The notes under the pieces are model-generated. The model saw nothing but the letters and a program-made list of their open reading frames with translations, made no database searches and was not told where the DNA came from. A DNA stretch of 64,000 nt from Chitinivibrionales bacterium (lineage in GTDB: Bacteria > Fibrobacterota > Chitinivibrionia > Chitinivibrionales > WJKA01), in contig JBBRUX010000017.1 of the NCBI GenBank assembly GCA_038247415.1, positions 1 through 64,000 on the forward strand. Direction: 5' to 3'. Shown here in pieces: positions 14,859 through 27,518 of the stretch. Made by a program: the position numbers and the translations under genes. Every line of letters begins with the position of its first letter. Within the stretch, counting starts at the first letter, position 1.

Positions 14859-15979
14859 CTAGAGCTGGAATTTGTTCATTGAGCTATTGAGGCTTTCAGA
14901 AAGAGATCGAAGCGCGACAGCATTCTCAGATGTATAGGATGCATCTTTTCGGGTACTTTCTACAACTGTTTCGATATTGCTTATGGTTGTAAGGACTTGC
15001 ATACTTTTCTGAGACATTTCCGTAAGTCCAGTTGCCAAGGCGCTTGCAGAGTCGCTGGCGCGTTGCACCGAAGAATTAATTTCGCCTATTGTAGCAGATT
15101 GTTCTTCAATTGCCGATGAATTCGTTCGAGAAATAGATGCAAATTGGTCTATTGAATTGCGAATTGAATCTACCCCGCTCACAGCCATTTTAACCTGATT
15201 TTGCATTGCACTAATCTTCTGCTGAATTTGTTTTGCTGCGTCGGTGCTTTGGGTTGCCAATGCTTTAACCTCTGCTGCAACAACAGCAAATCCTCTTCCC
15301 GCCTCTCCAGCCGATGTCGCTTCGATAGTTGCATTGAGTGATAGAAGTCGTGTTTTGCTTGCTATTTCATTCATGAGCTTTAAAATCGACCCAATTTCAT
15401 GAGATGCTATCTCAAGTTTTGCCATATTGTCGGTAACCGCTGCAACGCTATTTGCACTTTCTTGGGCCATGTGTGCTTCGGTAACGCAGTTTTGTGCGAT
15501 TTCGGAGATGCTTTTTTTCATTTCGTCGAGTGCATTTGAAAAGGAGGTGGTCATCTGTGAGACCTGCTGCGCTTCTGAGGTTAATGTCAGCGCAAGTTCG
15601 TGCGCATCGTTGCCCGCCGAAGAAATAATGCCGGTTCCTGACGAAAGGGTATGCGCATCGGTAGTTAGCTGGGCCGAGATGCTTTGCATTGAGTCTGCTG
15701 ATTTGTCTTAAGATCTGCTCCGGCTTTTTCGGGTGATAATCCAGCAAATGCGAGTGAAACTGCCTTAAATAAGGAGGCTTGCGTTTGTCCGAGCGTAAAG
15801 GTAACTTCTGCCAGATCGCGTGATTCAAGAAGTGCTTGCTGATACTCTTTTTGAAGAGTCTGCTGCCCTATAACACGGACGATCATTACACAACCACTTG
15901 CGATAAGCACTGTGGTAATGATAATAGACGGCATTACAAGTTTGATCAGAAGCTTTTGTTTTAAATACCATTTATACAT
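14859..15979 (-). pseudogene. Methyl-accepting chemotaxis protein, split and internally deleted
   Basis: 15665-15979 encodes TM1 plus the start of a sensor domain. 14859-15689, in another frame, encodes the signalling domain (LLSLNATIEATSAGEAGRGFAVVAAEVK). TM2 and HAMP are missing. Confidence 0.7.
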
Positions 15980-15981
15980 AC

Positions 15982-16449
15982 TTATTTTTTTTCGCTATAA
16001 ATACCGCATGCGACAAACATATCCTTGCCCGGAACCCTCGTAAAGAATGAAGTTTTTGGCTCAATTTTTTTAGATTCTGGATTTTGGAAGAGATAATCTA
16101 CTGAACCAGTTCCTTTTGTTTTAGCGAGATTTACCATTTCTTCGATATATTTTTTCCCATTTACATCTGCTACATCGATGCGATTTTTCCCAACGAGCTT
16201 TGGCTTTTGCCCGTGTGCCAAACATACACCACTAAAATCGTAGACGAATACATAGAGCTCGCCCTTAACAAATTCGCCGGTGGTATCCATGAAAGCAGGA
16301 AAAGCTTTTTCAACACCGTTTGTTTTTATATAGGTTATTGCTTTCGAAATCATCGCGGTTGCATCATCTTTAGTTGGGGCTGTTGCAAAAATCAGTGCGC
16401 TCGAAGCTAAAATGATGCTACCAACTGCTGCCTGCTTTAAAAAAGACAT
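15982..16449 (-). CDS. Stand-alone periplasmic single Cache domain protein
   Basis: GGAGG RBS before ATG 16449, signal peptide, and YVFVYD..G..LAHG..P.LVGKN..D..D.NGK motif. Confidence 0.9.
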   Translation of the reverse strand: MSFLKQAAVGSIILASSALIFATAPTKDDATAMISKAITYIKTNGVEKAFPAFMDTTGEFVKGELYVFVYDFSGVCLAHGQKPKLVGKNRIDVADVNGKKYIEEMVNLAKTKGTGSVDYLFQNPESKKIEPKTSFFTRVPGKDMFVACGIYSEKK

Positions 16450-16712
16450 AGAAAACCTCCCGGAATAAAGAAAAAGTAAAGAATTCAAAGCCTAAATTAT
16501 TTTTTACCTATGTATATGAAGCTTCCAGATAAAGAACAAAAAGTTATTATACCATAAGAAACTATCGTACTGCAACAAATATGGTTTGGAGCAATCGCCC
16601 CAAAAAGAGCTCGTAACCTATCTCGGTTGCCCAATATTGAAGAAAGCAAAGGCAAAACGTATATTTTCTATCCCTTATTTTTACTAATATATCAGAGAAA
16701 GAGCTCTCTACT

Positions 16713-17009
16713 ATGACTCCAGAGATGCTGAGTTACATTGATCGACGCAAGGCGATTGTACAAAAATTCAAAGAAGAGCTCATTAAAAGGCTTAATTTGC
16801 CGTATACTCCGGCAGATCTCCACGAAGATGTATCGCTTCTGGGGGCGGGGCTTGGGCTCGATTCCCTAGACGCTCTCGAAATTGTATTATGTGTTGAAAG
16901 TTGTTTCGGGGTAAAAATCCCCGACCAAAATATCTCTATTTTGCGTTCCATCAACACTATTGTCGATTTTGTGATAGAAACGCAAGATGCCAAAGGAGGT
17001 ACCCAATGA
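16713..17009 (+). CDS. Acyl carrier protein
   Basis: GLGLDSLDALEI phosphopantetheine site. Confidence 0.92.
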   Translation: MTPEMLSYIDRRKAIVQKFKEELIKRLNLPYTPADLHEDVSLLGAGLGLDSLDALEIVLCVESCFGVKIPDQNISILRSINTIVDFVIETQDAKGGTQ

Positions 17010-18115
17010 GAGTCTCGCTCTTACACGAAATGTTGGCACACAAAGGGGCAACATGTGAGAACCGGTATGGGGTCGAAATCGTTTCGAAGTTTACCGAGTT
17101 GTCAACCGAATATCATTTTGTTCGCGATACCATAGGGCTTACCGATTTTTCTCATATGCAGCGGTATTCTATACCCGAGGCAACTGCTGTAGATTTTTTT
17201 GATACGCTCGTGGCTGGAGCAGTGATTCGTACCCGATTTGGAAGAATGCTCCATACTTTTATAGCCGATGAGTCCGGTACTATACTTGCAGATTGTTTTG
17301 TGGCAAATAATGATGATGAATATATTCTTTTATGCGAAAGTATTGTCGATGATGTCGCAATGGCAGAGATTATGCATAAGCATGGGGGAGCACAGGAGGG
17401 GTTAGTCGATCTTTCTGCTGATACGGTATTGCTGAGTCTTGATGGCTTTTCTGCCTGGAAAGTTGTCAAGGAATTATTTGGTACCGATGTTCTTGGATTG
17501 CCCTACCTTTCGGTTGAAAATTATACTTACGAGAACGAAAAAATCCGTTTGTTTCGCACGGGGAAGACATCTGAATTTGGCTATCTTCTTATGGCCCCAA
17601 AAGCTATTGCAATAAAACTAACCGAGCATATTCTTGCCGAAGTCGAAAAGCATAAAGGCGGATTGTGTGGCTTGACTGTGCACGATACGCTTCGCCTCGA
17701 AGGACGTTTTTTTAATATCTTTGCAGAGGGCGTACGAGTGGGCGATCCACTTGTTTTGGGGTTGCAATGGATGATCGATTTTGACAAGAGTGCCTTTATT
17801 GGACGTCAAGCTATCATCGATCGAAGAGAAAAAGGCTTGACAAAAAAAATTATTGGCATTAAATCTGCTGCAGCCTCCGATCGCTGTGCGGTATCAGATT
17901 CAGTATGGGATAATGAAAAAGAAGTTGCATCCGTTGTGGCAACCTGTTTTTCCGAAGTTCTTGATAGATGCGTAGGACTTGCGGTGTTTCCGGCCGACAT
18001 TGCCTATTCCGGATTATCGTTTCACTTAAAAAGCGTTTCGGGTCCTACACTACACACCATTTCAATGCCTCCAATTATGCCAAAAAGTTTATCTCTTAAA
18101 TTGGATGAAATGTAA
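17006..18115 (+). CDS. Aminomethyltransferase (GcvT-like) family protein
   Basis: ATGA overlap with the ACP gene. Motifs DFSHM, RTGKTSEFGY, DTLRLEG and FIGRQA. Confidence 0.85.
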   Translation: MRVSLLHEMLAHKGATCENRYGVEIVSKFTELSTEYHFVRDTIGLTDFSHMQRYSIPEATAVDFFDTLVAGAVIRTRFGRMLHTFIADESGTILADCFVANNDDEYILLCESIVDDVAMAEIMHKHGGAQEGLVDLSADTVLLSLDGFSAWKVVKELFGTDVLGLPYLSVENYTYENEKIRLFRTGKTSEFGYLLMAPKAIAIKLTEHILAEVEKHKGGLCGLTVHDTLRLEGRFFNIFAEGVRVGDPLVLGLQWMIDFDKSAFIGRQAIIDRREKGLTKKIIGIKSAAASDRCAVSDSVWDNEKEVASVVATCFSEVLDRCVGLAVFPADIAYSGLSFHLKSVSGPTLHTISMPPIMPKSLSLKLDEM

Positions 18116-18884
18116 CATGACTGTTGCTGTTCAGGATGTTGATTCCCGCGCACTCTCGGGCAAAATTGCACTTATTACAGGCGGATCTCGCGGGATTGGG
18201 GCAGCAATTGTAGAGCGTTTTTGTGCGCTTGGTGCAATAGTTTACTTTACGTATCGTCGTGATGCCGATGCTGCCACGGCATTGGCGAATAAGACTGGCG
18301 CACACGCATGTTGCTGCTCGCAAAATGACGACCCTGCTATCGAAGCGCTTATTGCCACACTCCTTGATGCGCATCAAAAAATTGATATTCTTGTCAATAA
18401 TGCGGGTATTACAGACGACCAATTTCTCATGCTCATGCCGCCATCTTCGTGGGACACGGTACTAGATACTAATTTAAATGGTGCCTTTCGTTTTTGTAAA
18501 CATACAAGTCGGCCTATGATTCAAAATAAGAGTGGCTGCATTATTAATATGTCGTCGGTTTCGGCCCTGGTTGGCATTGGAGGGCAAACTAATTACGCAG
18601 CATCTAAAGGTGCGCTTTTGGCGTTCACTCGTTCATTGGCTGCAGAACTTGGTCCACGCGGTATTAGAGTCAATGCAATTGTTCCAGGATTTATCGAAAC
18701 CGAAATGACCGCAAAAATGTCCCGTCAAATTAAGCAGCAGAATAAAGAACGAATAGTGCTTAAACGATTTGGGACTGCCTACGAAGTTGCTGATGTTGCT
18801 GTTTTTTTGGTTTCGGATGCTGCAACTTATATTGTCGGTCAATCCATTGTGGTTGATGGCGGACTTTCCTCGACCGTGATATGA
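18105..18884 (+). CDS. fabG: 3-oxoacyl-ACP reductase (FabG-like)
   Basis: Motifs TGGSRGIG, NNAG, YAASK and PGFIET. The start may be ATG 18117. Confidence 0.88.
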   Translation: MKCNMTVAVQDVDSRALSGKIALITGGSRGIGAAIVERFCALGAIVYFTYRRDADAATALANKTGAHACCCSQNDDPAIEALIATLLDAHQKIDILVNNAGITDDQFLMLMPPSSWDTVLDTNLNGAFRFCKHTSRPMIQNKSGCIINMSSVSALVGIGGQTNYAASKGALLAFTRSLAAELGPRGIRVNAIVPGFIETEMTAKMSRQIKQQNKERIVLKRFGTAYEVADVAVFLVSDAATYIVGQSIVVDGGLSSTVI

Positions 18885-19822
18885 CCTGTACCATAGCCGG
18901 ACTTTTTCCAGGACAAGGCGGTATTGCGGTAGGCGATGCTAAAGTCATTCTCGAAGCAAGCGAATATACCAGATTTCTTTTTGAAAAAGCCTCCCAGTAT
19001 TGCAATACCGATCTTGTAGAACTTTCTACGCACGGCCCCGAAAAAACACTCCTCCTTTCACGCACTGTTCAACCTGTTATTGTTGCGCTTTCATTAGGGT
19101 TGCTCTATGAATTTAGAGCTCACAAGGGGGAATTGTCGGTTGTTGTTGGTCATTCTTTAGGTGAGATTTCGGCACTTGCAGCAAGTGGCGTAATATCGGA
19201 CGATAAAGCTCTTGTGTATGCTATCGAGCGTGGAATTCGCATGGATGAAGCCGCTTCGACCTGTGGAGGAGGCGGGATGAGAGCTGTGGTTTTTACTCCT
19301 CTTGAGAACGTACGAAATCTTATTGCCGAACTTTTCGAAACCTACCCCATCTATTTAGCTAATGTAAACGCACCAGAACATTGCGTCGTATCAGGAACGC
19401 ACGAATCCCTTGCTGTTTTTGCAAAGCTCCTCAAAGAACGAGGCCTTGGTAAATGTCAACCTGTTAGGGTGCGTGGGCCGTGGCATACCCCCTTAATGAT
19501 ACAGGCACGGCAATCCTATGCCCGTTGGGTAGAACATGAAACATTTGCTGCTCCCCGCATTCCCCTTATCCTTAACGAAAACGGGAGCGTCTTGACAGAT
19601 GCTCATGAGATCAAGCAATCACATATTAATCAGTTAGTTAATCCCGTCCAGTGGCAAGCGTGCATGACAACGCTCATCGAATTAAATCCACTGATGCTTG
19701 TGGAGTTTGGTCCTGGGCGGATGCTTACAGGACTTGCTCGTGTCAATGGCTTTAAGCGAGGATCGGTTGTGGTATCGGGTGCAACAGTATCCTCGATTAT
19801 TGTTGCTTTAAACAATACGTAG
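18881..19822 (+). CDS. fabD: ACP S-malonyl/acyltransferase (FabD-like)
   Basis: Motifs FPGQG, GHSLGE, GPWHTP and EFGPG; ATGA overlap. Confidence 0.85.
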   Translation: MTCTIAGLFPGQGGIAVGDAKVILEASEYTRFLFEKASQYCNTDLVELSTHGPEKTLLLSRTVQPVIVALSLGLLYEFRAHKGELSVVVGHSLGEISALAASGVISDDKALVYAIERGIRMDEAASTCGGGGMRAVVFTPLENVRNLIAELFETYPIYLANVNAPEHCVVSGTHESLAVFAKLLKERGLGKCQPVRVRGPWHTPLMIQARQSYARWVEHETFAAPRIPLILNENGSVLTDAHEIKQSHINQLVNPVQWQACMTTLIELNPLMLVEFGPGRMLTGLARVNGFKRGSVVVSGATVSSIIVALNNT

Positions 19823-19994
19823 TGTCAAACGCTTGCATTGCTTTTTTCCTTCAACCAGTTTCTACGTTGCGGTTGCATGGATCATACAAAATCGCTATAT
19901 TACTTAGACGCTTCCCTGCTATAAAATTTTAGAACTGAAATAGCTTGTTACCTTATTTACTAGGTTTCTTTTGAGACCCAAGGGACTATTCTGC

Positions 19995-21728
19995 ATGATT
20001 CATCGAAAAATAAGAATAATTTCGCAGGTGTTCTTTCTCTTTCTTTTCTTTGGCACTTTCTTTTTATTGACTACCTATAGCAACGCAGTATCGTTTAAGA
20101 GTGCATGGTTTTTGCAATTAAACCCCTTAACGTCCCTCTGCGTTATGATTGCTGCGCGATCGATGGTTTGGCCGCTTCTTATCGGGAGTGCGCTTGTGTT
20201 TACGCTTACCCTCATTTTTGGTCGTTTTTTTTGTGGTTTCATCTGCCCACTGGGAACACTTATAGATGCAAGTGACAAATATCTTTTCGGGCATACCCCG
20301 CCCTTTAAAGCGCAAGTTCTCCCGAGTAAATTAATCCGAGTAAAATATCTTCTCTTGATTGCACTTGGTGTTCTGGCTCTTTTTTCCTCTCTTGTTCCGC
20401 TCTTTTTCGATCCGATTTCTTTGTTAACGCGCATTGCTACTATAATTCTTGTTCCCTTATTTTCTATTGTGCGAGCCGACAGCACTGCATTTTTGCAGCA
20501 GATTTCTTCTGGTGCTCTCAGTTTCCCTGCCTTTAAGGTTCCTCTTTATTATGCAATAGGCGAAGCCCTTATTCTTGTTGCCCTTATTTTTTTTGGGGCC
20601 TTGTGGGCACCTCGTTTTTATTGTCGGGTTCTATGTCCAAGCGGTGCTTTTTTTGGGATCGTTGGTCGCTTTGCACTTTTTCACCGGCGCTCACATGCTG
20701 CAACGTGTCATTCCTGCGGTTTGTGTGCAAAATTGTGTCCAACCAATGCAATTATTAATAAGAACGGCGATACAACAATTCAGAGCGAATGTATTGTGTG
20801 CGGAGTCTGCACCTCAAAAAAACATGTTGCGTGCAATCGATTTGTTTTTGGGAAGCCTTCACTCGCTTTTGTTAAAGGTCCCGACCTTTCTCGTCGTAGT
20901 CTTGTTGCGGGTGCCGGCATTGGTGCGCTTTTGGTGCCACTCGTTCGAGCAGATGCACTTGTCAAGCAAGATGGGCAGGGGAGGCTTATACGGCCGCCTG
21001 GTGCAATCGAAGAAATTGATTTTGTCAAGAAGTGTATTGGGTGCGGTGCGTGCTATAAAGTATGTCCCACAAATGCCATTCAACCATGCACTTTTTTGGA
21101 TGGCGCACTACGGCAGTTTTCCCCAAAAATTGTTCCGCGTATCGGCGGATGCGAAGAAAAATGTTTTGCATGCGGACATGTGTGTCCAACAGGTGCTTTA
21201 CGGCCGCTTGTGTACGAGAGTAAAAAGTATGCGAAAATAGGAACTGCTGTTATTCATCGGCAAAAGTGTCTTGCATGGTCTCAAAAACGCGAATGCCTTG
21301 TGTGTGATGAAACGTGTCCGTATAATGCCATTGAGGCGAGTGTACAGGAAACTACCAAAGGTCCTTTTAAAGTACCAATTGTCTACGAAAGTCTTTGCAC
21401 TGGTTGCGGAATGTGCGAAATGCATTGTCCTATCAAAGGGGATGGTGCAATAGTAGTATATAAATTTGGAGAAAATAGGCTATCCAAAGGTGAGTATCTT
21501 ACGCAGTGGCAGAAGAAGAGCTTTGATGAGCAACGTCAGAAATCTGACAGCAAAGGGATGATGGGAACTGCATCTTCATCGTCTGCAGATACACCTCTCA
21601 CGGGTTTCGAAAATACCGGATTTGTATCACAATCGTCAGGTTCTGAATTAGTTGACACAGCAAAGTTTGCTCCGCAGAATACAAAAAGCACCTCTTCTGG
21701 GAGTGCTCTTCCTGCAGGATTTGAATAG
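19995..21728 (+). CDS. Membrane polyferredoxin (NapH/MauN-like fused to NapG/MauM-like)
   Basis: TM helices with GRFFCGFICP and RFYCRVLCP, multiple CxxCxxCxxxCP motifs, and IRPPGA. Confidence 0.88.
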   Translation: MIHRKIRIISQVFFLFLFFGTFFLLTTYSNAVSFKSAWFLQLNPLTSLCVMIAARSMVWPLLIGSALVFTLTLIFGRFFCGFICPLGTLIDASDKYLFGHTPPFKAQVLPSKLIRVKYLLLIALGVLALFSSLVPLFFDPISLLTRIATIILVPLFSIVRADSTAFLQQISSGALSFPAFKVPLYYAIGEALILVALIFFGALWAPRFYCRVLCPSGAFFGIVGRFALFHRRSHAATCHSCGLCAKLCPTNAIINKNGDTTIQSECIVCGVCTSKKHVACNRFVFGKPSLAFVKGPDLSRRSLVAGAGIGALLVPLVRADALVKQDGQGRLIRPPGAIEEIDFVKKCIGCGACYKVCPTNAIQPCTFLDGALRQFSPKIVPRIGGCEEKCFACGHVCPTGALRPLVYESKKYAKIGTAVIHRQKCLAWSQKRECLVCDETCPYNAIEASVQETTKGPFKVPIVYESLCTGCGMCEMHCPIKGDGAIVVYKFGENRLSKGEYLTQWQKKSFDEQRQKSDSKGMMGTASSSSADTPLTGFENTGFVSQSSGSELVDTAKFAPQNTKSTSSGSALPAGFE

Positions 21729-21755
21729 TTTTTTACCGATAAAACGGGGGTTGCC

Positions 21756-22664
21756 ATGGATCTATCTCGTCGTGAATTTGTTAAATCTTCTGCAGTTGCA
21801 TCATTGCTTGCAGTGCCGGTAGTAGCTCTTGATCAAGCAGCATCTGCAAAAAGTGAAGTTTTTGTGGGAAAAGGAAATGCAGAGATTGTCATTCCAAAGA
21901 TACTTGCGAAAATGGGTGGGATAGGGCGTTTTGTAAAGCCTGGAAGTCGCGTTGTTATTAAGCCGAATATGAGTTTTGCTAATCCACCCGAATGGGGAAC
22001 GACAACCTCCCCAGAAGTTGTGGCAATACTCGCAAAGCTCTGTTTAGATGCTGGTGCTAAGCGGGTTATTGTATGTGATAATACCTTGCGTGATCCACAA
22101 ATTTGTAAAGCGCAAACTGGCATTGGGGCGGCACTCAAAGATCTCAAGGGTGTGGTTATCTTTACGCCACAACAGGTGGATTCTTTTTATGAGGAAAAGA
22201 GTCATCCTAAGGCTTTGGAGCTTACTCGTACCGAAGTGGTTAAAGAAGTACTTGCCGCCGATGCTCTTATTTGTCTTCCTGCTGCTAAATCTCACTCTGC
22301 GGGAGGCGTATCTTTTGGCATTAAGGGCTTAATGGGTCTGGTTAAAAATCGTGGGCGTTTTCACTCCGAAATGGATTTACACAAAGCAATTGCGGAACAG
22401 CTTTACTATATGACTCCCACGCTCACACTTATCGATGCAACACGTGCGCTGCTTGACAATGGCCCTGCTGGTCCTGGCAAGGTTGTTACTCTTAATACCT
22501 ATGTGGCGGGAACCGATCCTGTAGCTACCGACAGCTTTGGCGTTTCTCTTGCGCCCTGGTATGGGAGAAGTTTTGATGGCAAACAGGTAACGCATCTTCA
22601 GCATGCGAGCGCACTTGGTTTTGGAAATGTAGATTCGGCAAAAATTTCGGAAATTACTGTGTAA
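21756..22664 (+). CDS. DUF362 family protein with Tat signal
   Basis: SRREFVK twin-arginine signal; VVIKPN, KSH and DPVATD motifs. Confidence 0.88.
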   Translation: MDLSRREFVKSSAVASLLAVPVVALDQAASAKSEVFVGKGNAEIVIPKILAKMGGIGRFVKPGSRVVIKPNMSFANPPEWGTTTSPEVVAILAKLCLDAGAKRVIVCDNTLRDPQICKAQTGIGAALKDLKGVVIFTPQQVDSFYEEKSHPKALELTRTEVVKEVLAADALICLPAAKSHSAGGVSFGIKGLMGLVKNRGRFHSEMDLHKAIAEQLYYMTPTLTLIDATRALLDNGPAGPGKVVTLNTYVAGTDPVATDSFGVSLAPWYGRSFDGKQVTHLQHASALGFGNVDSAKISEITV

Positions 22665-22744: not shown

Positions 22745-23413
22745 TTATATGTTGAGAATTCCCCGAATTATTCCCAGGTACTCTTCTCGCCGCGTATCGA
22801 AGTCAACAGGCTTTTGGAAAAATTCAAAGAAACGGTTCTGTCGAAGCGTTCTGTAAAGAAGATTGTTGTCGTTTTCTGGATTGCCTGTAATCAGAATAAA
22901 AGCCATAGAGGGAACGAGTTTTTTTACTTCGGTGCAGAGCTCGTTGCCTCGCATTCCCGGCATTACTTCATCGGTAATAACTAAGCCCACTTCGGGGGTT
23001 TCCTTGATAAATGCAAGCGCTTCAAAGGGATTGGTGAATGTTTGCAGCTTAAAATATTTGCTGAATTTGCGTTTGAAAACAAAGATGTTTTGTTCTTCAT
23101 CGTCAACGTATACAACAATGGGTTGCTTGAGTGAATGTGGCTTTTGAGCCTTGAGCATATGGTCGATAATATCCCCAATGGTTAGGGTATTAAACCGTTC
23201 GGGTACCAGCATGCTCTCCATTTCTAGAGATGGAATTTTAAGTCGAATTTCGAGGTCGCGTATTATTTCTCCAAAAGTAGCGATATCCACTCCATACGCC
23301 TGAAGTTGCTTCGTTGGCTCGGCTATTTCTTCGAAATGTATAATCTCATCGTTTCTATCGATGATACGTTCAGCGGCTGCACGGAGCAGATTGTAAGCAG
23401 AGGTCTTATCCAT
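22745..23413 (-). CDS. Response regulator: degenerate ACP-like N-domain plus receiver domain
   Basis: ATG 23413 overlaps the upstream stop. N-half LQAYGVDIATFGEIIRDLE..LKI..TIGDIID; receiver with VDDE, ITDEVMP, ITG and QKP. Confidence 0.8.
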   Translation of the reverse strand: MDKTSAYNLLRAAAERIIDRNDEIIHFEEIAEPTKQLQAYGVDIATFGEIIRDLEIRLKIPSLEMESMLVPERFNTLTIGDIIDHMLKAQKPHSLKQPIVVYVDDEEQNIFVFKRKFSKYFKLQTFTNPFEALAFIKETPEVGLVITDEVMPGMRGNELCTEVKKLVPSMAFILITGNPENDNNLLYRTLRQNRFFEFFQKPVDFDTRREEYLGIIRGILNI

Positions 23414-24614
23414 TGGAACCTTTCTTGCCAGGAAACCGTGATTCGAGGCCAAATTTTTTAAGCGCAGCAATAATTTCTGCACCTATTAAATCAATATCGT
23501 TTTCGGAGAGATCGGAATACAAAGAAAATCTGAGTAAACTTGATCCCGACGGAACTGCAGGCGGGAGAAATACCGCTGTAAGAATATTTTTTTCGAGCAG
23601 TTCGCCATACATGAGGCATGCGTCATCTGTCCCTTTAAATCGCAGAGAAACAATCTGGCATTCGCTTGGACCAGTATCAATATTTTGTGCTGTCAAAAGC
23701 TCTCGTAAACGCTTGGCCATTGCATGAACATGAGCTGCACGATGTGGCTCTCGCTCAATAATTGCAAGTGCTGCACTATTTCCAGCAGAATTTGCAGGAG
23801 GAGGAGCAGAACTAAAAATGCTTGGTCGCATCCAGAACGGTAGCGCTTGCCCAGCATACTTGGAAGTTATGATGAGTCCTCCGCTACCACCTAATGCTTT
23901 GGCTAAACTGACGGTTCGGTAATGGATCGCGCTTTCGAGCCCTAATGCTACTGCAAGCCCTCCGCCATGTTCGCCGATCATGCCAAAACTATGAGCTTCG
24001 TCAAGAACCAAAACACAATTATTTTTTTGCGCTATGTCAGCGTACTGCTCAAGGGGAGAAACTGCTCCGCTTGTGCTGTAGTATGAGTCTATAATGACTA
24101 TCCCCGGCCCGTAGGATTCAATGAAGCTCTCCAAAGCCTTTGGGCGGTTGTGACGAATAGGGACTATGCGACCTGCAGAAAGGCGGCCGCCATCCCAGAG
24201 TGAAGCATGTGCTGCCATGTCAATGTAAATGGGTGTGTCTTCGGTGGCAAGGGAACTGATCAGGCCGACATTTGCCGACCAGCCGCTGGTTGTGATCTGG
24301 ATTCCATCGGGTCCGTCGACTTTTGATACGCGTGCTACACGTTCGCGAAATTCAGAATGGTAATCGTGTGCACCACCATAGGTCATGGATGCCATAGCAC
24401 CAGAGCCTGTTTTTTCGGTTGCTGCATTTTTTGCAGCAATAACTTCTGGGTGTGCAGATAAACGCAAATAGTTGTTTTGATGACACGTAAAGTACCCTTT
24501 GATGTCTGCATCGGGCGGAGGATCAAAAGGAAAAACCACCAGGGCGTTTTTTGATACGTAGAATTCATCGATACGTTTGCTGAGCCAATCGGGCATTGTG
24601 GGAACGTTATTCAT
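23406..24614 (-). CDS. cqsA: CqsA/LqsA-type PLP-dependent autoinducer synthase (AONS family)
   Basis: MPDWLSKRIDEF N-terminus, SGWSANVGL, YIDMAAHASLWDG, GPGIVIIDSYYSTSG, DEAHS and SLAK are CqsA-clade variants of the AONS motifs. Confidence 0.78.
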   Translation of the reverse strand: MNNVPTMPDWLSKRIDEFYVSKNALVVFPFDPPPDADIKGYFTCHQNNYLRLSAHPEVIAAKNAATEKTGSGAMASMTYGGAHDYHSEFRERVARVSKVDGPDGIQITTSGWSANVGLISSLATEDTPIYIDMAAHASLWDGGRLSAGRIVPIRHNRPKALESFIESYGPGIVIIDSYYSTSGAVSPLEQYADIAQKNNCVLVLDEAHSFGMIGEHGGGLAVALGLESAIHYRTVSLAKALGGSGGLIITSKYAGQALPFWMRPSIFSSAPPPANSAGNSAALAIIEREPHRAAHVHAMAKRLRELLTAQNIDTGPSECQIVSLRFKGTDDACLMYGELLEKNILTAVFLPPAVPSGSSLLRFSLYSDLSENDIDLIGAEIIAALKKFGLESRFPGKKGSNG

Positions 24615-24648
24615 CGAGCTGCCTTTTTGTATACTTAAAGAGTATTGA

Positions 24649-25710
24649 TTAATAGTAATTTTTTAAATCGGTTCGGCGATTCCATTGACCGGTGACCATT
24701 AATTTGATACGGACCATCCACACGATTGCATCGCGCATGCCTAAACGATGGGCTGCATAGCGCATTGCTTTGAATGCACCATTGAGCCGATAATTTTTAA
24801 AGGGGCCTTTTCTTTTAATGTCTTGTTGAACAAAGAGTGGTGTATCGTATTGTATATCGTTGAGGTTGATATGATAAGTAAACCGCCCCTCTGTACGGGC
24901 CGCATCAACAGATTTTTTATGGCGCGCCGTACTTGCAGGAGTCACTACCATTGCGAGCGCGTAATCCCCACTAATAGCACCACTTGGGCAATCCATCGAG
25001 CATCGAAAGCAGAAAATGCACGGTGACTGAATGCGTGGTGGGTTAGAAAGCGGATCGATACCGCCAACAGGACAAATTTTAGCGCAGATTCCGCATGTGG
25101 TGCATCGATTAGCATCGATATGTAAAGGAGGAAGCATTGCGCGTAACGTCTTAGGTTGATACAGATCGAGTTCTTTAAAAACCCATCGTTCCTCTTTTGG
25201 CAAAGGAGCCGGTTGCACCGAGGGAATGTCTTCTCCAGCACGGGCCCGTAGAGTCAAACGAGCGATACTTTTCCCAAACTCAGTGGATTCTTCGAGATCC
25301 AAAGTGTCGGGGTGTCCTGTGGTGAGGGTAGGATACGGATAATACGGGAGTCTTCCGTCGGCATAGCAATGATGACATCCTAACACTGTAGCAGCTTTAT
25401 TTTTAAGAGAAAGAGTGATTGACTGAAGAGCAGTTGCCGGAATGGTTCCATGGGAGACAAAGGCAAACCAGAGAGCCCCATTTTGAGCAGGGAGTGCATT
25501 GATAAAATCGGTTACATTAAAAGGAATCTGATAATAAAAAACGGGTGATCCAATACCAATGACATCGTAGGATGCTAGTAACGTTGTGTCGATCGTGTGC
25601 ATTTCAAAAAGGTCGACAGGAAGACCCGCGGCTTGAATTCCTGTTGCAATTGCCTGGGCAACTTTTTTAGTTCCGCCAGTTTGCGAAAAGTAAATTATTG
25701 CACATTTCAT
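24649..25710 (-). CDS. EFR1-type flavodoxin + 2x[4Fe-4S] ferredoxin fusion
   Basis: YFSQTGGT flavodoxin motif; CTTCGICAKICP and CIFCFRCSMDCP; ATGA overlap at 25707-25710. Confidence 0.88.
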   Translation of the reverse strand: MKCAIIYFSQTGGTKKVAQAIATGIQAAGLPVDLFEMHTIDTTLLASYDVIGIGSPVFYYQIPFNVTDFINALPAQNGALWFAFVSHGTIPATALQSITLSLKNKAATVLGCHHCYADGRLPYYPYPTLTTGHPDTLDLEESTEFGKSIARLTLRARAGEDIPSVQPAPLPKEERWVFKELDLYQPKTLRAMLPPLHIDANRCTTCGICAKICPVGGIDPLSNPPRIQSPCIFCFRCSMDCPSGAISGDYALAMVVTPASTARHKKSVDAARTEGRFTYHINLNDIQYDTPLFVQQDIKRKGPFKNYRLNGAFKAMRYAAHRLGMRDAIVWMVRIKLMVTGQWNRRTDLKNYY

Positions 25711-27236
25711 GTGGGAGTATCTTTCATCTGACTTTTGATGTTGCACTGTTTGAGAATAGCTTCTGCCGACCAATAGGCAGACATGCCAACACCCGAGATC
25801 CCTGCACCTGGGCTAACCCACGCACTTGTAAAATATAAAGCATGCTTTTTAAGATGAAAGGGAAATCGGTTTAGCCCGCCTTGAGAAATTCGCTGACATG
25901 CCCCATATACTGCACCTTCGGGATTATTGCTATAGCGTTGCATTGTTTTTGGTGTGCTGATGTCAGCTACATCAATATGGTTTGTAAACCCTGGAAAGTG
26001 CTTTTCAACCTTGGCAATAAGTATGTCTGCTACCCGTTTCTTTTCGGCATTGTATGCAGCTTTGTCGGTAATTGCATTCCAGTAGGGTATCCGATCCACA
26101 GTGCAGATCGCGAGAACCGATTTGCCCTCTGGTGCAAGCGAATGGTCGAGGTTATACGATATGAGTGCTATACCTCTTTTGTCAAAATCAACGAGTTTTC
26201 CATCTGTTTTTGTCTCACTAATGTCGTCAAGTTCATTCAGAAAATAGCAATATTCATTGATCCCGAGCGATTTTGCATCAACATTCAAACCAATATATAC
26301 CGAGAACATTGAAGTGGAAATATGTGTCCTTGATGCTTTTTTCTGAATGCGAGCAGATACTGCCTTTGTGTTAATCAGTCCAGAAAAGAGCTCTGTTATT
26401 GGGCCATTGTAAACAACGGCATCGGCAGGGATGTGGTTGGTATCGATGCTTACACCGCATGCTTTTTTGCCTTTGAAGTCGATATGGTTAACACGAGAAT
26501 TTGTATGAATTTCGCCATTGTTTTCGGTTATAATAGTTCCAAGTGCTTTTGCAAGTTCGTGCGAAGTTCCAGAAATCCAGTACGCTTCGTTAAGAAATAC
26601 ATGGGTAGGCGCAGCAAAAAAAGGAACATTGAGATTTCTGACATCATCGGCAAAGTAATAGTAAAGCTGCCCGAGAATAGTACGCACTTTGTTATTGGCG
26701 ATAGTTCCCCAAATGAGATCGTGCACAGTTTTATAGGAATACATCATCAGGGTTGGCATTTTAAAAGGTGCCTTGAGTAGTTCAAATCCTTTTGCATCCG
26801 AAAACCAGTCGAGTTCCGAAGATATTTTTTCGAGCACGGTAAAAAAGGTTGTTATCCCTTTTTGTTCTTCGGGAAATTGGTTTACAAGCTGGGCACAAAG
26901 TTCTTTTGAGGAATGGGGCAGGGTGAATTTAAAATCGCCTGTGATGGAGGTATACGGGGATTTGATAGGAAGCAAGGTGATACGTTCTTGCAATTTCAAA
27001 TAGCGAAAATAACGCGCTTTAAGTTTGTCGTTGAGAAAACCGTTAAGCTCGTGCAAAGATCCTTCCATTAAATAGTCTTTTCGTTTCCACGAAGTAGCAA
27101 AACCCCCAATTTTTGGAAGCGCTTCAAAAATATGAACTTTGACGCCATGCTTCGCGAGCATTGCACCACAAAAGAGACCGCCTAAACCGCCGCCAACAAT
27201 TGCAACAGTGGGTGGATTTGATCCTTGGGTTTTCAT
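25707..27236 (-). CDS. Phytoene desaturase / retinol saturase-like FAD oxidoreductase
   Basis: Motifs GGGLGG..E..IGG, STPKT..RY..NPEGAVYG and PGAGISGV. Confidence 0.88.
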   Translation of the reverse strand: MKTQGSNPPTVAIVGGGLGGLFCGAMLAKHGVKVHIFEALPKIGGFATSWKRKDYLMEGSLHELNGFLNDKLKARYFRYLKLQERITLLPIKSPYTSITGDFKFTLPHSSKELCAQLVNQFPEEQKGITTFFTVLEKISSELDWFSDAKGFELLKAPFKMPTLMMYSYKTVHDLIWGTIANNKVRTILGQLYYYFADDVRNLNVPFFAAPTHVFLNEAYWISGTSHELAKALGTIITENNGEIHTNSRVNHIDFKGKKACGVSIDTNHIPADAVVYNGPITELFSGLINTKAVSARIQKKASRTHISTSMFSVYIGLNVDAKSLGINEYCYFLNELDDISETKTDGKLVDFDKRGIALISYNLDHSLAPEGKSVLAICTVDRIPYWNAITDKAAYNAEKKRVADILIAKVEKHFPGFTNHIDVADISTPKTMQRYSNNPEGAVYGACQRISQGGLNRFPFHLKKHALYFTSAWVSPGAGISGVGMSAYWSAEAILKQCNIKSQMKDTPT

Positions 27237-27518
27237 ATTTCCTTAAATTATGGGTCGAAGAATTTATAAATGGCATTGAAAAGATAATCATTAATTGCCC
27301 AATTGGCAAAAAAAACATTTAACCTCGTATGTTCATAAACTTAGCATAAAGGGAATATACGCTGATACATAATGGTAACTGATTGATTCTTGATTCCTTG
27401 CGTTTAAGCTGGGTGTTCCTATCGCGATTAAACTCTTCAAATCTTGGTATTAGGGACGGTTTTTTGCAGGCAATCACAATTTAGGCAGAGAGGGTGATTA
27501 TTTATTATTTTAGAACCC

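Follow-up and report, generated by a model that had tools for sequence, protein, structure and literature searches.

The stretch of DNA analysed here, referred to as the window, comprises positions 1 to 64,000 (forward strand) of contig JBBRUX010000017.1, from the Chitinivibrionales bacterium assembly GCA_038247415.1. Its region 22745-27236 contains four open reading frames (ORFs), all on the minus strand, which make up a single predicted operon. The functional core of this operon is formed by its last two genes, with an overlap of 8 bp between them: gene 3, encoding a pyridoxal phosphate (PLP)-dependent synthase related to the autoinducer synthases CqsA and LqsA, and gene 4, encoding a response regulator with a predicted carrier-protein fold that lacks the phosphopantetheine serine. 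We favour, at about even chances, a reading in which a kinase-controlled mimic of a carrier protein gates an aminoketone-lipid synthase.

The features of the locus are the following (aa, amino acids).

22745..23119, minus strand: gene 4, residues 99-222 plus stop, receiver domain (PF00072; residues D104, D105, D148, T176 and K201)
23123..23413, minus strand: gene 4, residues 1-97, four-helix fold of an acyl carrier protein (ACP), from the predicted structure and structure comparison
23406..24614, minus strand: gene 3 (P0003, 402 aa), PLP-dependent alpha-oxoamine synthase of a clade sister to CqsA/LqsA
24649..25710, minus strand: gene 2 (353 aa from the ATG at 25710), EFR1-family flavodoxin domain followed by a 2x[4Fe-4S] ferredoxin domain
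25707..27236, minus strand: gene 1 (P0001, 509 aa), divergent flavin adenine dinucleotide (FAD) oxidoreductase resembling CrtI, carotenoid isomerase and retinol saturase, with a GGGLGG dinucleotide fold
27237..27518, minus strand: upstream intergenic region of 282 bp, with promoter-like hexamers (consensus matches only) and a ribosome-binding site, AAGGAAAT, before gene 1

Organization of the operon

An earlier reading of this DNA, made from the sequence alone and called here the sequence-only reading, had proposed four co-oriented and tightly coupled genes at this place. The ORF list and its translations agreed with this, and all three junctions were confirmed by reading them directly. Between genes 1 and 2 (...ACTCCCACATGAAATGT...), the TGA stop at 25707-25709 and the ATG start at 25708-25710 form an ATGA overlap, through which gene 2 is translationally coupled to gene 1. 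Gene 2 ends with the TAA at 24649-24651 and gene 3 begins with the ATG at 24614, leaving a spacer of 34 bp that contains AAAAAGG. The TAA stop of gene 3 (23406-23408) lies within the start region of gene 4, whose ATG is at 23411-23413, hence the 8-bp overlap. For genes 2 and 4, the ORF program also listed longer forms beginning at TTG or GTG. These seem unlikely to be the true starts, for gene 2 because its match to the EFR1 model starts only at residue 26 of the longer version, and for gene 4 because 27 of 27 aligned homologues start at the ATG. No terminator-like site was found between the four genes, the only one being a weak site inside gene 2, where weak promoter-like matches were also present. 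A HAD-hydrolase gene diverges from the upstream gap.

A response regulator with a carrier-protein fold

Gene 4 encodes a protein of 222 residues, counted from its ATG, the C-terminal part of which is a receiver domain (43.5 bits against PF00072, cut-off 30.2). Its family comprises at least 204 clusters at 90% identity, whose members are about 220 to 230 residues long and 43 to 62% identical to the window protein. Residue conservation was counted on the 120 best members of this family, and D104, D105, D148, T176 and K201 proved invariant in all of them.

Profile searches with the N-terminal domain gave little. Residues 1-97 had no Pfam match at E ≤ 1, and the gathering score of the carrier-protein family PF00550 (20.8) was not reached; the paralogue encoded on contig C5, described below, scored 12.8 bits with the same model, also under the gathering score. 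A profile search of the PDB returned weak rows only, NodF being aligned over its full length at E 0.019. The leucine-rich-repeat rows of that search were discarded as composition artefacts. When the domain profile was run against 1.84 billion representative sequences, 37 matches at E ≤ 0.001 were obtained, consisting of family members and their fragments, polyketide synthase proteins with several phosphopantetheine (PP)-binding domains, and a few leucine-rich false positives.

The domain was modelled with a predicted local distance difference test (pLDDT) value of 87 alone and of 87.9 within the full protein. In a VIA-align comparison the model was superposed on AcpM over 81/82 residues (root-mean-square deviation 2.0) with a Z of 10.6, although for helical domains Z values below about 13 can be due to chance; the lower rows were carrier proteins as well. 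Foldseek found no match at E ≤ 0.001, the best having an E of 0.088 and a probability of 0.99, and nearly all the rows listed were acyl or peptidyl carrier proteins. The ACP fold was accepted despite the Z value, because the list was almost uniformly one of carrier proteins and the alignments spanned nearly the whole domain.

Part of the carrier motif has been retained in the gene 4 family, G41 being kept in 118 and D43 in 115 of the 120 members. At the site of the phosphopantetheine serine, a serine was present in only 2 members, while 104 had leucine, isoleucine or valine and the window protein has Ile44; neither position 45 nor position 46 was conserved as serine or threonine. The ACP fold and the loss of the serine, taken together, make 'ACP mimic' a fair description, and the sequence-only reading had rightly used these words for gene 4: a carrier fold without its serine is fused to an intact receiver. 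One member of the family is named 'CheY-like chemotaxis protein/acyl carrier protein' by its source, the Joint Genome Institute (JGI), with PF00550 among its precomputed domains. A search of the open literature found no paper that describes a receiver protein with a carrier fold, or CqsA-like genes from the Fibrobacterota, and the architecture of the regulator may be new in itself.

A synthase from a sister clade of CqsA and LqsA

Among the NCBIfam models, the best for gene 3 was NF005526 (alpha-hydroxyketone autoinducer synthase), with 300.4 bits compared to 234 for bioF and 220 for serine palmitoyltransferase (SPT), which is under the curated NF005526 cut-off of 428 bits. The C5 paralogue scored 294.7 bits with this model, and other members of the sister clade defined below (P0005, P0014 and the synthases of loci L102 and L109) scored 288 to 316. 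Of the solved structures, Vibrio CqsA came first (200 bits), then SPT (152) and BioF (138). The four motifs from which the sequence-only reading had argued were found in gene 3; their aligned counterparts in the solved Vibrio CqsA are SGWNANVGL, IDFFAHMSLWEG, GPGIIVVDSIYST and SLAK.

A careful IQ-TREE phylogeny was calculated on 68 rows. These were gene 3 and its paralogue, clade members from the protein search, translated synthases of related loci, 13 proteins named by their sources as CqsA/LqsA-type, BioF and Kbl of Escherichia coli, and 12 oxoamine synthases from this genome and its relatives. NCBIfam labels the last set as BioF (L005 and L006, with 446 and 428 bits, over the cut-off), BioF-like (the genome's own C30 and six others) or SPT-like (L004, L008 and L009, with 600 to 607 bits for a cut-off of 640). 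L031 and L033 were omitted on account of a branch of 5.19 changes per column in a quick tree.

Gene 3 was placed in a clade of 31 rows (support 100/100). The named alpha-hydroxyketone-type synthases, together with six unnamed metagenome proteins, formed another of 19 rows (100/100), and the split uniting both clades (50 rows) against all BioF, Kbl and SPT-like rows was equally well supported (100/100). The quick tree, with 70 rows, gave the same placement. The catalytic residues H136, D205, H208 and K239 (the PLP lysine), which align with those of the solved CqsA, were invariant in the 68 rows. Serine 236, of the SxxK motif, was found in all 50 rows of the joint clade, where the other 18 all have threonine, and position 149 was basic in 31 of 31 rows of the sister clade, compared to 6 of 19 canonical rows. 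We conclude that gene 3 encodes an intact, active-looking PLP-dependent alpha-oxoamine synthase of a deep sister clade to CqsA/LqsA. The CqsA identity that had been claimed for it thus stood in part: gene 3 does not group with BioF or SPT-like enzymes and goes with CqsA and LqsA instead, but it falls outside the characterised clade and below its cut-off. We infer that the product would be a long-chain alpha-aminoketone or enaminone, made from an acyl thioester and an amino donor.

The nearest synthase to gene 3 was P0005, at 58% identity. No close CqsA-like gene was found in the 40 nearest genomes, where the best identity was 33% and those matches were BioF- or SPT-like. Within the sister clade, genomic context was mixed, and consisted of a hybrid kinase, of a short-chain dehydrogenase/reductase (SDR) with a true ACP and a PigE-like aminotransferase, or, in the Fibrobacterota subclade, of the regulator. 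In the metagenome contigs L109 and L111, a convergent gene for a 603-aa HisKA-HATPase-receiver hybrid kinase comes directly after the synthase gene, in a layout resembling cqsA/cqsS; L110 belongs to the same subclade. In three relatives from soil or peat (L102, L103 and L106, 42 to 47% identical to gene 3), the synthase gene is followed, in this order, by genes for an SDR, a true PP-binding ACP and a PigE-like aminotransferase of 962 aa, with ABC1 kinases or a fatty-acid desaturase upstream. This cluster looks like an uncharacterised natural-product or lipid pathway. In L107, the synthase is found with an SDR and a ketosynthase.

Predicted docking of the carrier-like domain on the synthase

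The complex of a gene 3 dimer (alignment of 31 rows) with regulator residues 1-97 (alignment of 26 rows) was predicted with a score of 0.72, compared to 0.02 for the best of three controls, none of them a true ACP. Of 157 solved complexes, 116 reach the docking pass mark, as do 2 of 215 mismatched pairs; these counts hold only roughly here, because we used our own alignments and a three-chain job, unlike the calibration. The runs agreed in at least 84% of contacts, and the pLDDT of the partner was at least 76.

In the model, regulator residues 43-48 and 66-76 contact synthase residues 133, 137, 140, 144, 149-154 and 351-356, which flank the PLP-stacking H136. The contact side of the regulator consists of the start of helix II, including the serine-equivalent Ile44, and of the helix III region. 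This predicted interface is the one that a true ACP would use. The basic character of position 149 in the sister clade fits an ACP-docking patch, although in itself it proves nothing.

Conservation of the synthase-regulator pair

Exactly two copies of the regulator are encoded in the genome, each after a CqsA-like gene. The second pair, on contig C5, is 52% (synthase) and 53% (regulator) identical to genes 3 and 4. Upstream of it, at the position that the flavoenzymes hold in the window, are genes for a fatty acyl-AMP ligase (FAAL)-like enzyme and an MSMEG_0568-type radical SAM protein; a class III cyclase, a FeeM-PilZ protein, a methyltransferase and then three kinase ORFs come next. The FeeM-PilZ protein (L015:15835-17028), encoded between the cyclase and the kinases with the methyltransferase gene after it, is a PilZ domain fused to an N-acyl amino acid synthase of the FeeM type, and looks like an acyl-amino-acid synthase responsive to cyclic di-GMP. 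About 4 kb from the C5 locus, an ORF of 182 aa (L015:4226-4774) that has only the C-terminal part of an RVT_1 domain is probably a retroelement remnant.

The regulator was detected in 21 of the 296 genomes of the phylum that were searched. Its distribution by family code is as follows.

f17: 17 of 32 genomes
f5: 2 of 46 genomes
f16: 1 of 1 genome
f13: 0 of 151 genomes
other genomes of the window's own family: 0 of 6

Among the 21 genomes with the regulator, G253 is flagged as unpublished; loci L034 and L043, assigned to it by their matching coordinates, are included in the locus counts. The two f5 genomes (G048 and G049) each have the regulator gene, a CqsA-like gene with 59% identity to the C5 paralogue, and two consecutive genes for GAF-type kinases.

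Overall, 34 regulator loci were counted, the window and C5 included. The regulator gene is present in up to three copies per locus, and the synthase gene, where there is one, usually comes directly before it. The neighbours encountered are listed below; absences are weak evidence, because many contigs are short.

CqsA-like synthase: 13 loci
Other oxoamine synthase: 10 loci, plus L031 by Pfam
GAF kinase: 13 loci
Class III cyclase: 13 loci
CrtI-like and EFR1 genes: 1 locus, the window

A tblastn analysis of 28 genome loci, 18 metagenome loci, 9 loci of relatives and the two genomes G048 and G049 did not reveal the four-gene order anywhere else, and the idea of the sequence-only reading that this order might be conserved had to be given up. 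The conserved unit is the synthase with the regulator, commonly accompanied by kinases and a cyclase, since this pair recurs with three synthase lineages, whereas the four-gene order is specific to the window locus. Besides the CqsA-like enzymes, the synthases concerned are SPT-like (338 bits on the SPT model for that of L017; the set groups with the SPT-like genes of relatives, support 99/93) and PRK07505-like (L031, 279 bits). The common theme would therefore be the control of oxoamine synthases, and not CAI-1-type chemistry. In a tree of 36 regulators, clustering followed the type of upstream synthase, a pattern that relatedness alone can yield.

A distinct subfamily of the regulator, which follows no synthase, was observed at L017, L019, L024, L028, L031, L033 and L034. 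Its members form a clade of seven (99 in the Shimodaira-Hasegawa-like approximate likelihood ratio test, SH-aLRT) and have, for the most part, about 233 aa. At the five of these loci that were scanned with Pfam (L017, L019, L031, L033 and L034), it lies beside a class III cyclase of 505 to 528 aa encoded on the opposite strand, and the cyclase may be its partner.

Two alternatives to a carrier mimic controlling an aminoketone-lipid synthase can be weighed on these data. In one of them, the product of the enzyme is a lipid of structural or secondary-metabolite type, for example a sphingoid-like base, an aminolipid or an alkaloid precursor; the two-component parts would do no more than tune membrane or metabolite output, and no cell-to-cell signal would be involved. 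The coupling of the regulator to SPT-like enzymes such as that of L017 points this way, and so do the SDR, true ACP, PigE-like aminotransferase, ketosynthase and fatty-acid desaturase found with clade relatives, and the FAAL-like ligase and FeeM-type synthase at C5. Such a role sits less well with the density of signalling proteins at the regulator loci (GAF kinases and class III cyclases at 13 of 34 each, and as many as three regulator copies), and a module as patchy as this one, found in 21 of 296 genomes, would be unusual for a core membrane lipid. We regard this alternative as rather unlikely.

The other supposes that the N-terminal domain does function as a carrier, with an acyl group attached at a non-canonical residue or held non-covalently, and passes this group from a ligase to the synthase while the receiver controls delivery. 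It draws on the two family members that keep the serine, on the JGI name and precomputed PF00550 of one member, on the C5 ligase, a kind of enzyme that normally needs a carrier, and on the true ACPs that follow the synthase in soil relatives. The replacement of the serine by leucine, isoleucine or valine in 104 of 120 members, the lack of conserved serine or threonine at positions 45 and 46, and the absence of a ligase from the window locus make it very improbable.

Genes 1 and 2: a flavoenzyme and a flavodoxin-ferredoxin

Gene 1 matches Amino_oxidase and CrtI-family models along its full length, with 54.6 bits against PF01593 (cut-off 19.8) and 112.9 bits against TIGR02734 (CrtI), where the subfamily cut-off of 238 was not reached. 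Its likeness to CrtI, CrtISO and retinol saturase goes no further: it is far under all equivalog cut-offs (for carotenoid isomerase, 118 compared to 587 bits), and domain and family scans of the window ORFs revealed no carotenoid genes. Gene 2, on the other hand, passes the cut-off of the EFR1 family of flavodoxin-ferredoxins (NF038196, 97.3 bits over residues 26-268 of the long form, cut-off 75), and also matches Flavodoxin_5 and Fer4 domains. The domain calls of the sequence-only reading agreed with all these results, namely an Amino_oxidase/CrtI-like enzyme, a flavodoxin with 4Fe-4S clusters, an Aminotran_1_2 protein with the alpha-hydroxyketone synthase as its best model, and a receiver.

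The nearest homologues of gene 1 were 11 proteins of 42 to 55% identity, two of them labelled Spirochaetota. When the homologue lists were compared, none of the contigs of its closest homologues agreed in length with a contig carrying CqsA-like genes. We know of no described pairing of a CrtI-type flavoenzyme with an EFR1 protein or an oxoamine synthase, no dedicated search having been made. Genes 1 and 2 would be an add-on of the window copy, an FAD enzyme with its own flavodoxin-ferredoxin electron supply, which may saturate or desaturate the acyl chain or the enone product.

Another possibility is that genes 1-2 have nothing to do with genes 3-4, and that the two two-gene units lie 34 bp apart by chance. 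The overlap within each pair and the gap between the pairs are what this would produce, and the two pairs co-occur nowhere else among the loci examined. But both are on one strand, the 34-bp gap has no terminator-like site, the promoter-like matches inside gene 2 are weak, and at the paralogous locus, too, two acyl-handling genes occupy the same upstream position. We therefore hold a chance juxtaposition to be unlikely.

Candidate kinases and the question of quorum sensing

Among the ORFs of at least 150 aa that were scanned, no histidine-kinase domain was detected in the window, and none of the 31 and 57 kinase-type matches obtained in the genome was on contig C17; the sequence-only reading was thus correct in noting that no kinase of the CqsS/LqsS type is present in the window. 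In the genome as a whole, residues 1-183 of the L109 hybrid kinase, the sole query available for a CqsS-like sensor region, had no match, since all 57 matches to this kinase begin at query residue 184 or later. Kinases of another type were found beside the same pair. GAF kinases are encoded at 13 of the 34 regulator loci, including those of G048 and G049, genomes of the same order, and the genome's own C5 locus, whose three kinase ORFs are its best matches to the GAF kinase of locus L019. The genome-wide search for a partner kinase therefore had a divided outcome, with no CqsS-like sensor region but with GAF-type kinases next to the pair at C5 and in relatives. For the sensor domain of the GAF kinase there were sub-threshold hints only (PF12625 at E 2.9e-4 and V4R at E 0.22). 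On C5, the region that best matches the GAF kinase of L019 (729 aa), L088:5334-7617, consists of two overlapping ORFs, one of 434 aa with the sensor part and one of 353 aa with the HATPase part, which may reflect a frameshift, an assembly error or a genuine split.

These observations bear on the proposal from which the analysis started, namely that the operon encodes a quorum-sensing synthase of the classical CqsA type, that the flavoenzymes reduce or desaturate its product to give a new secreted autoinducer, and that the regulator is an ordinary downstream signalling element without action on the enzyme. Gene 3 is indeed the closest kin of CqsA/LqsA among oxoamine synthases, its clade members L109 and L111 adjoin a hybrid kinase as cqsA adjoins cqsS, and all four genes are tightly coupled. 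A redox step is also required later in CAI-1 biosynthesis, according to PMC3376566. However, the flavoenzyme pair accompanies the synthase at only 1 of 34 loci, and at C5 its place is taken by the FAAL-like and radical SAM enzymes. The sensor region of the L109 kinase has no counterpart in the genome, and the same regulator family follows SPT-like synthases, which are not CqsA kin. Nor does the proposal explain why an ACP domain without its serine should be present. That the two flavoenzymes make a new autoinducer is pure conjecture, and we judge the proposal as a whole improbable. A quorum-sensing role of the locus in some form is plausible. A diffusible autoinducer is suggested by the wealth of signalling genes nearby and by the hybrid kinases beside some clade members, a lipid or metabolite role by the coupling of the regulator to SPT-like enzymes and by the natural-product settings of other clade members.

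Proposed mechanism

In the favoured reading, in which the carrier mimic gates the synthase, the serine-less domain would dock on the synthase at the point of entry of an acyl-ACP or of the pantetheine arm of acyl-CoA, with the hydrophobic residue 44 at the mouth of the tunnel. Phosphorylation of D148 would change this docking, so as to gate or scaffold the activity of the synthase. The kinases responsible would likely be the GAF-domain histidine kinases encoded beside the pair at C5 and in relatives, which have a cytoplasmic N-terminal domain and two membrane helices. The window copy would borrow those of C5, because it has none of its own.

Several points weigh against this reading, in addition to the absence of a significant Foldseek match and the Z value given above. 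The docking score may mean only that any ACP fold would be placed in this way, the predictor having learned from the numerous ACP-enzyme complexes already solved, and the list of contacts does not place residue 44 within the tunnel. No oxoamine synthase is seen at 11 of the 34 regulator loci. Some of these are short, but L032, L039 and L043 extend over about 20 kb, so that the regulator would have other partners or roles. With no kinase encoded at the window locus, the reading presupposes cross-talk with those of C5. Genes 1 and 2 appear to be without supporting conservation, and since members of the sister clade are found in apparent natural-product clusters, the chemistry is not readable from clade membership.

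If the docking model holds, the regulator would represent a new kind of two-component output, in which a pseudo-substrate carrier domain acts directly on a biosynthetic enzyme, and a natural case of ACP mimicry used as a regulatory device. A wider form of this idea is tentative, and we think it rather less likely than not: the family of about 220 residues as a whole would consist of regulators with carrier mimicry as their output, which plug or unplug the acyl tunnel of oxoamine synthases upon phosphorylation. They would form, with GAF kinases and class III cyclases, a circuit specific to the Fibrobacterota, having a long-chain aminoketone or sphingoid-like lipid as its product and possibly as the signal sensed, and the window copy would produce a redox-modified variant of this lipid.

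The CqsA/LqsA lineage, for its part, would gain a well-supported sister clade, found in Fibrobacterota and in soil and peat metagenomes, and in at least three genomic contexts. These mixed contexts warn against the blanket annotation 'CAI-1 autoinducer synthase', which is used by one source. As the host belongs to the Fibrobacterota, and is thus non-proteobacterial as the sequence-only reading had supposed, the pair also offers an entry point to signalling or lipid regulation, both of them little known in this phylum.

Comparison with known systems

With Vibrio CqsA/CqsS and Legionella LqsA/LqsS/LqsR, the locus shares a PLP-dependent alpha-oxoamine synthase that has the same catalytic residues and common motifs, including SxxK and W140, and that is the nearest relative by hidden Markov model, PDB and tree comparisons. 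The substrates of CqsA are acyl-CoA and S-adenosylmethionine, as stated in PMC3376566. In both cases the synthase is linked to two-component proteins, but the partner kinases here are of the GAF type with two membrane helices, in place of six-helix hybrid kinases of the CqsS type, and the regulator has an N-terminal ACP-fold output and a gene that overlaps that of the synthase. Gene 3 itself belongs to the sister clade (300 bits for a cut-off of 428). Three features of the CqsA/LqsA family are thus lacking in the window system, namely the cut-off score, membership of the clade and an adjacent CqsS-type kinase.

Oxoamine synthases that use acyl-ACP form a second point of comparison: BioF accepts pimeloyl-ACP, and bacterial serine palmitoyltransferases have a dedicated ACP. 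The present system resembles them in that an ACP-fold protein is encoded beside the synthase and is predicted to dock at its substrate entrance, and a true PP-binding ACP is encoded two genes downstream of the synthase in the soil relatives of gene 3. It differs from them in that the carrier fold is without the serine in 118 of 120 members and is fused to a receiver.

Finally, CheY, CpdR and DivK are response regulators that bind a target protein and not DNA. Gene 4 is comparable to these, having an intact receiver, no DNA-binding or enzymatic output domain, and a proposed phosphorylation-dependent protein binding. It is set apart by the extra N-terminal ACP-fold domain, which leaves the receiver at the C-terminus, and by its proposed target, a biosynthetic enzyme encoded by the overlapping gene.

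Neighbouring genes and minor observations

A co-oriented cluster on the plus strand (16901-22664) converges on the operon. It encodes a GcvT-like aminomethyltransferase (134 bits, below the cut-off), a FabG-like SDR, a FabD-like acyltransferase, a NapH/NapG-like polyferredoxin of 585 aa and a DUF362 protein. A functional link of this cluster to the operon is possible, because the CAI-1 pathway needs an SDR after CqsA.

Further away on the minus strand, two separate neighbouring ORFs (14859-15689 and 15982-16488) contain a methyl-accepting chemotaxis protein (MCP) signalling domain and a Cache sensor domain. Together they may represent a single chemoreceptor, split or frameshifted.

An Arr-type rifampin ADP-ribosyltransferase domain (161 bits) was observed at L039:4769-5209, on a contig of a Fibrobacteres metagenome-assembled genome that also carries a copy of the regulator.

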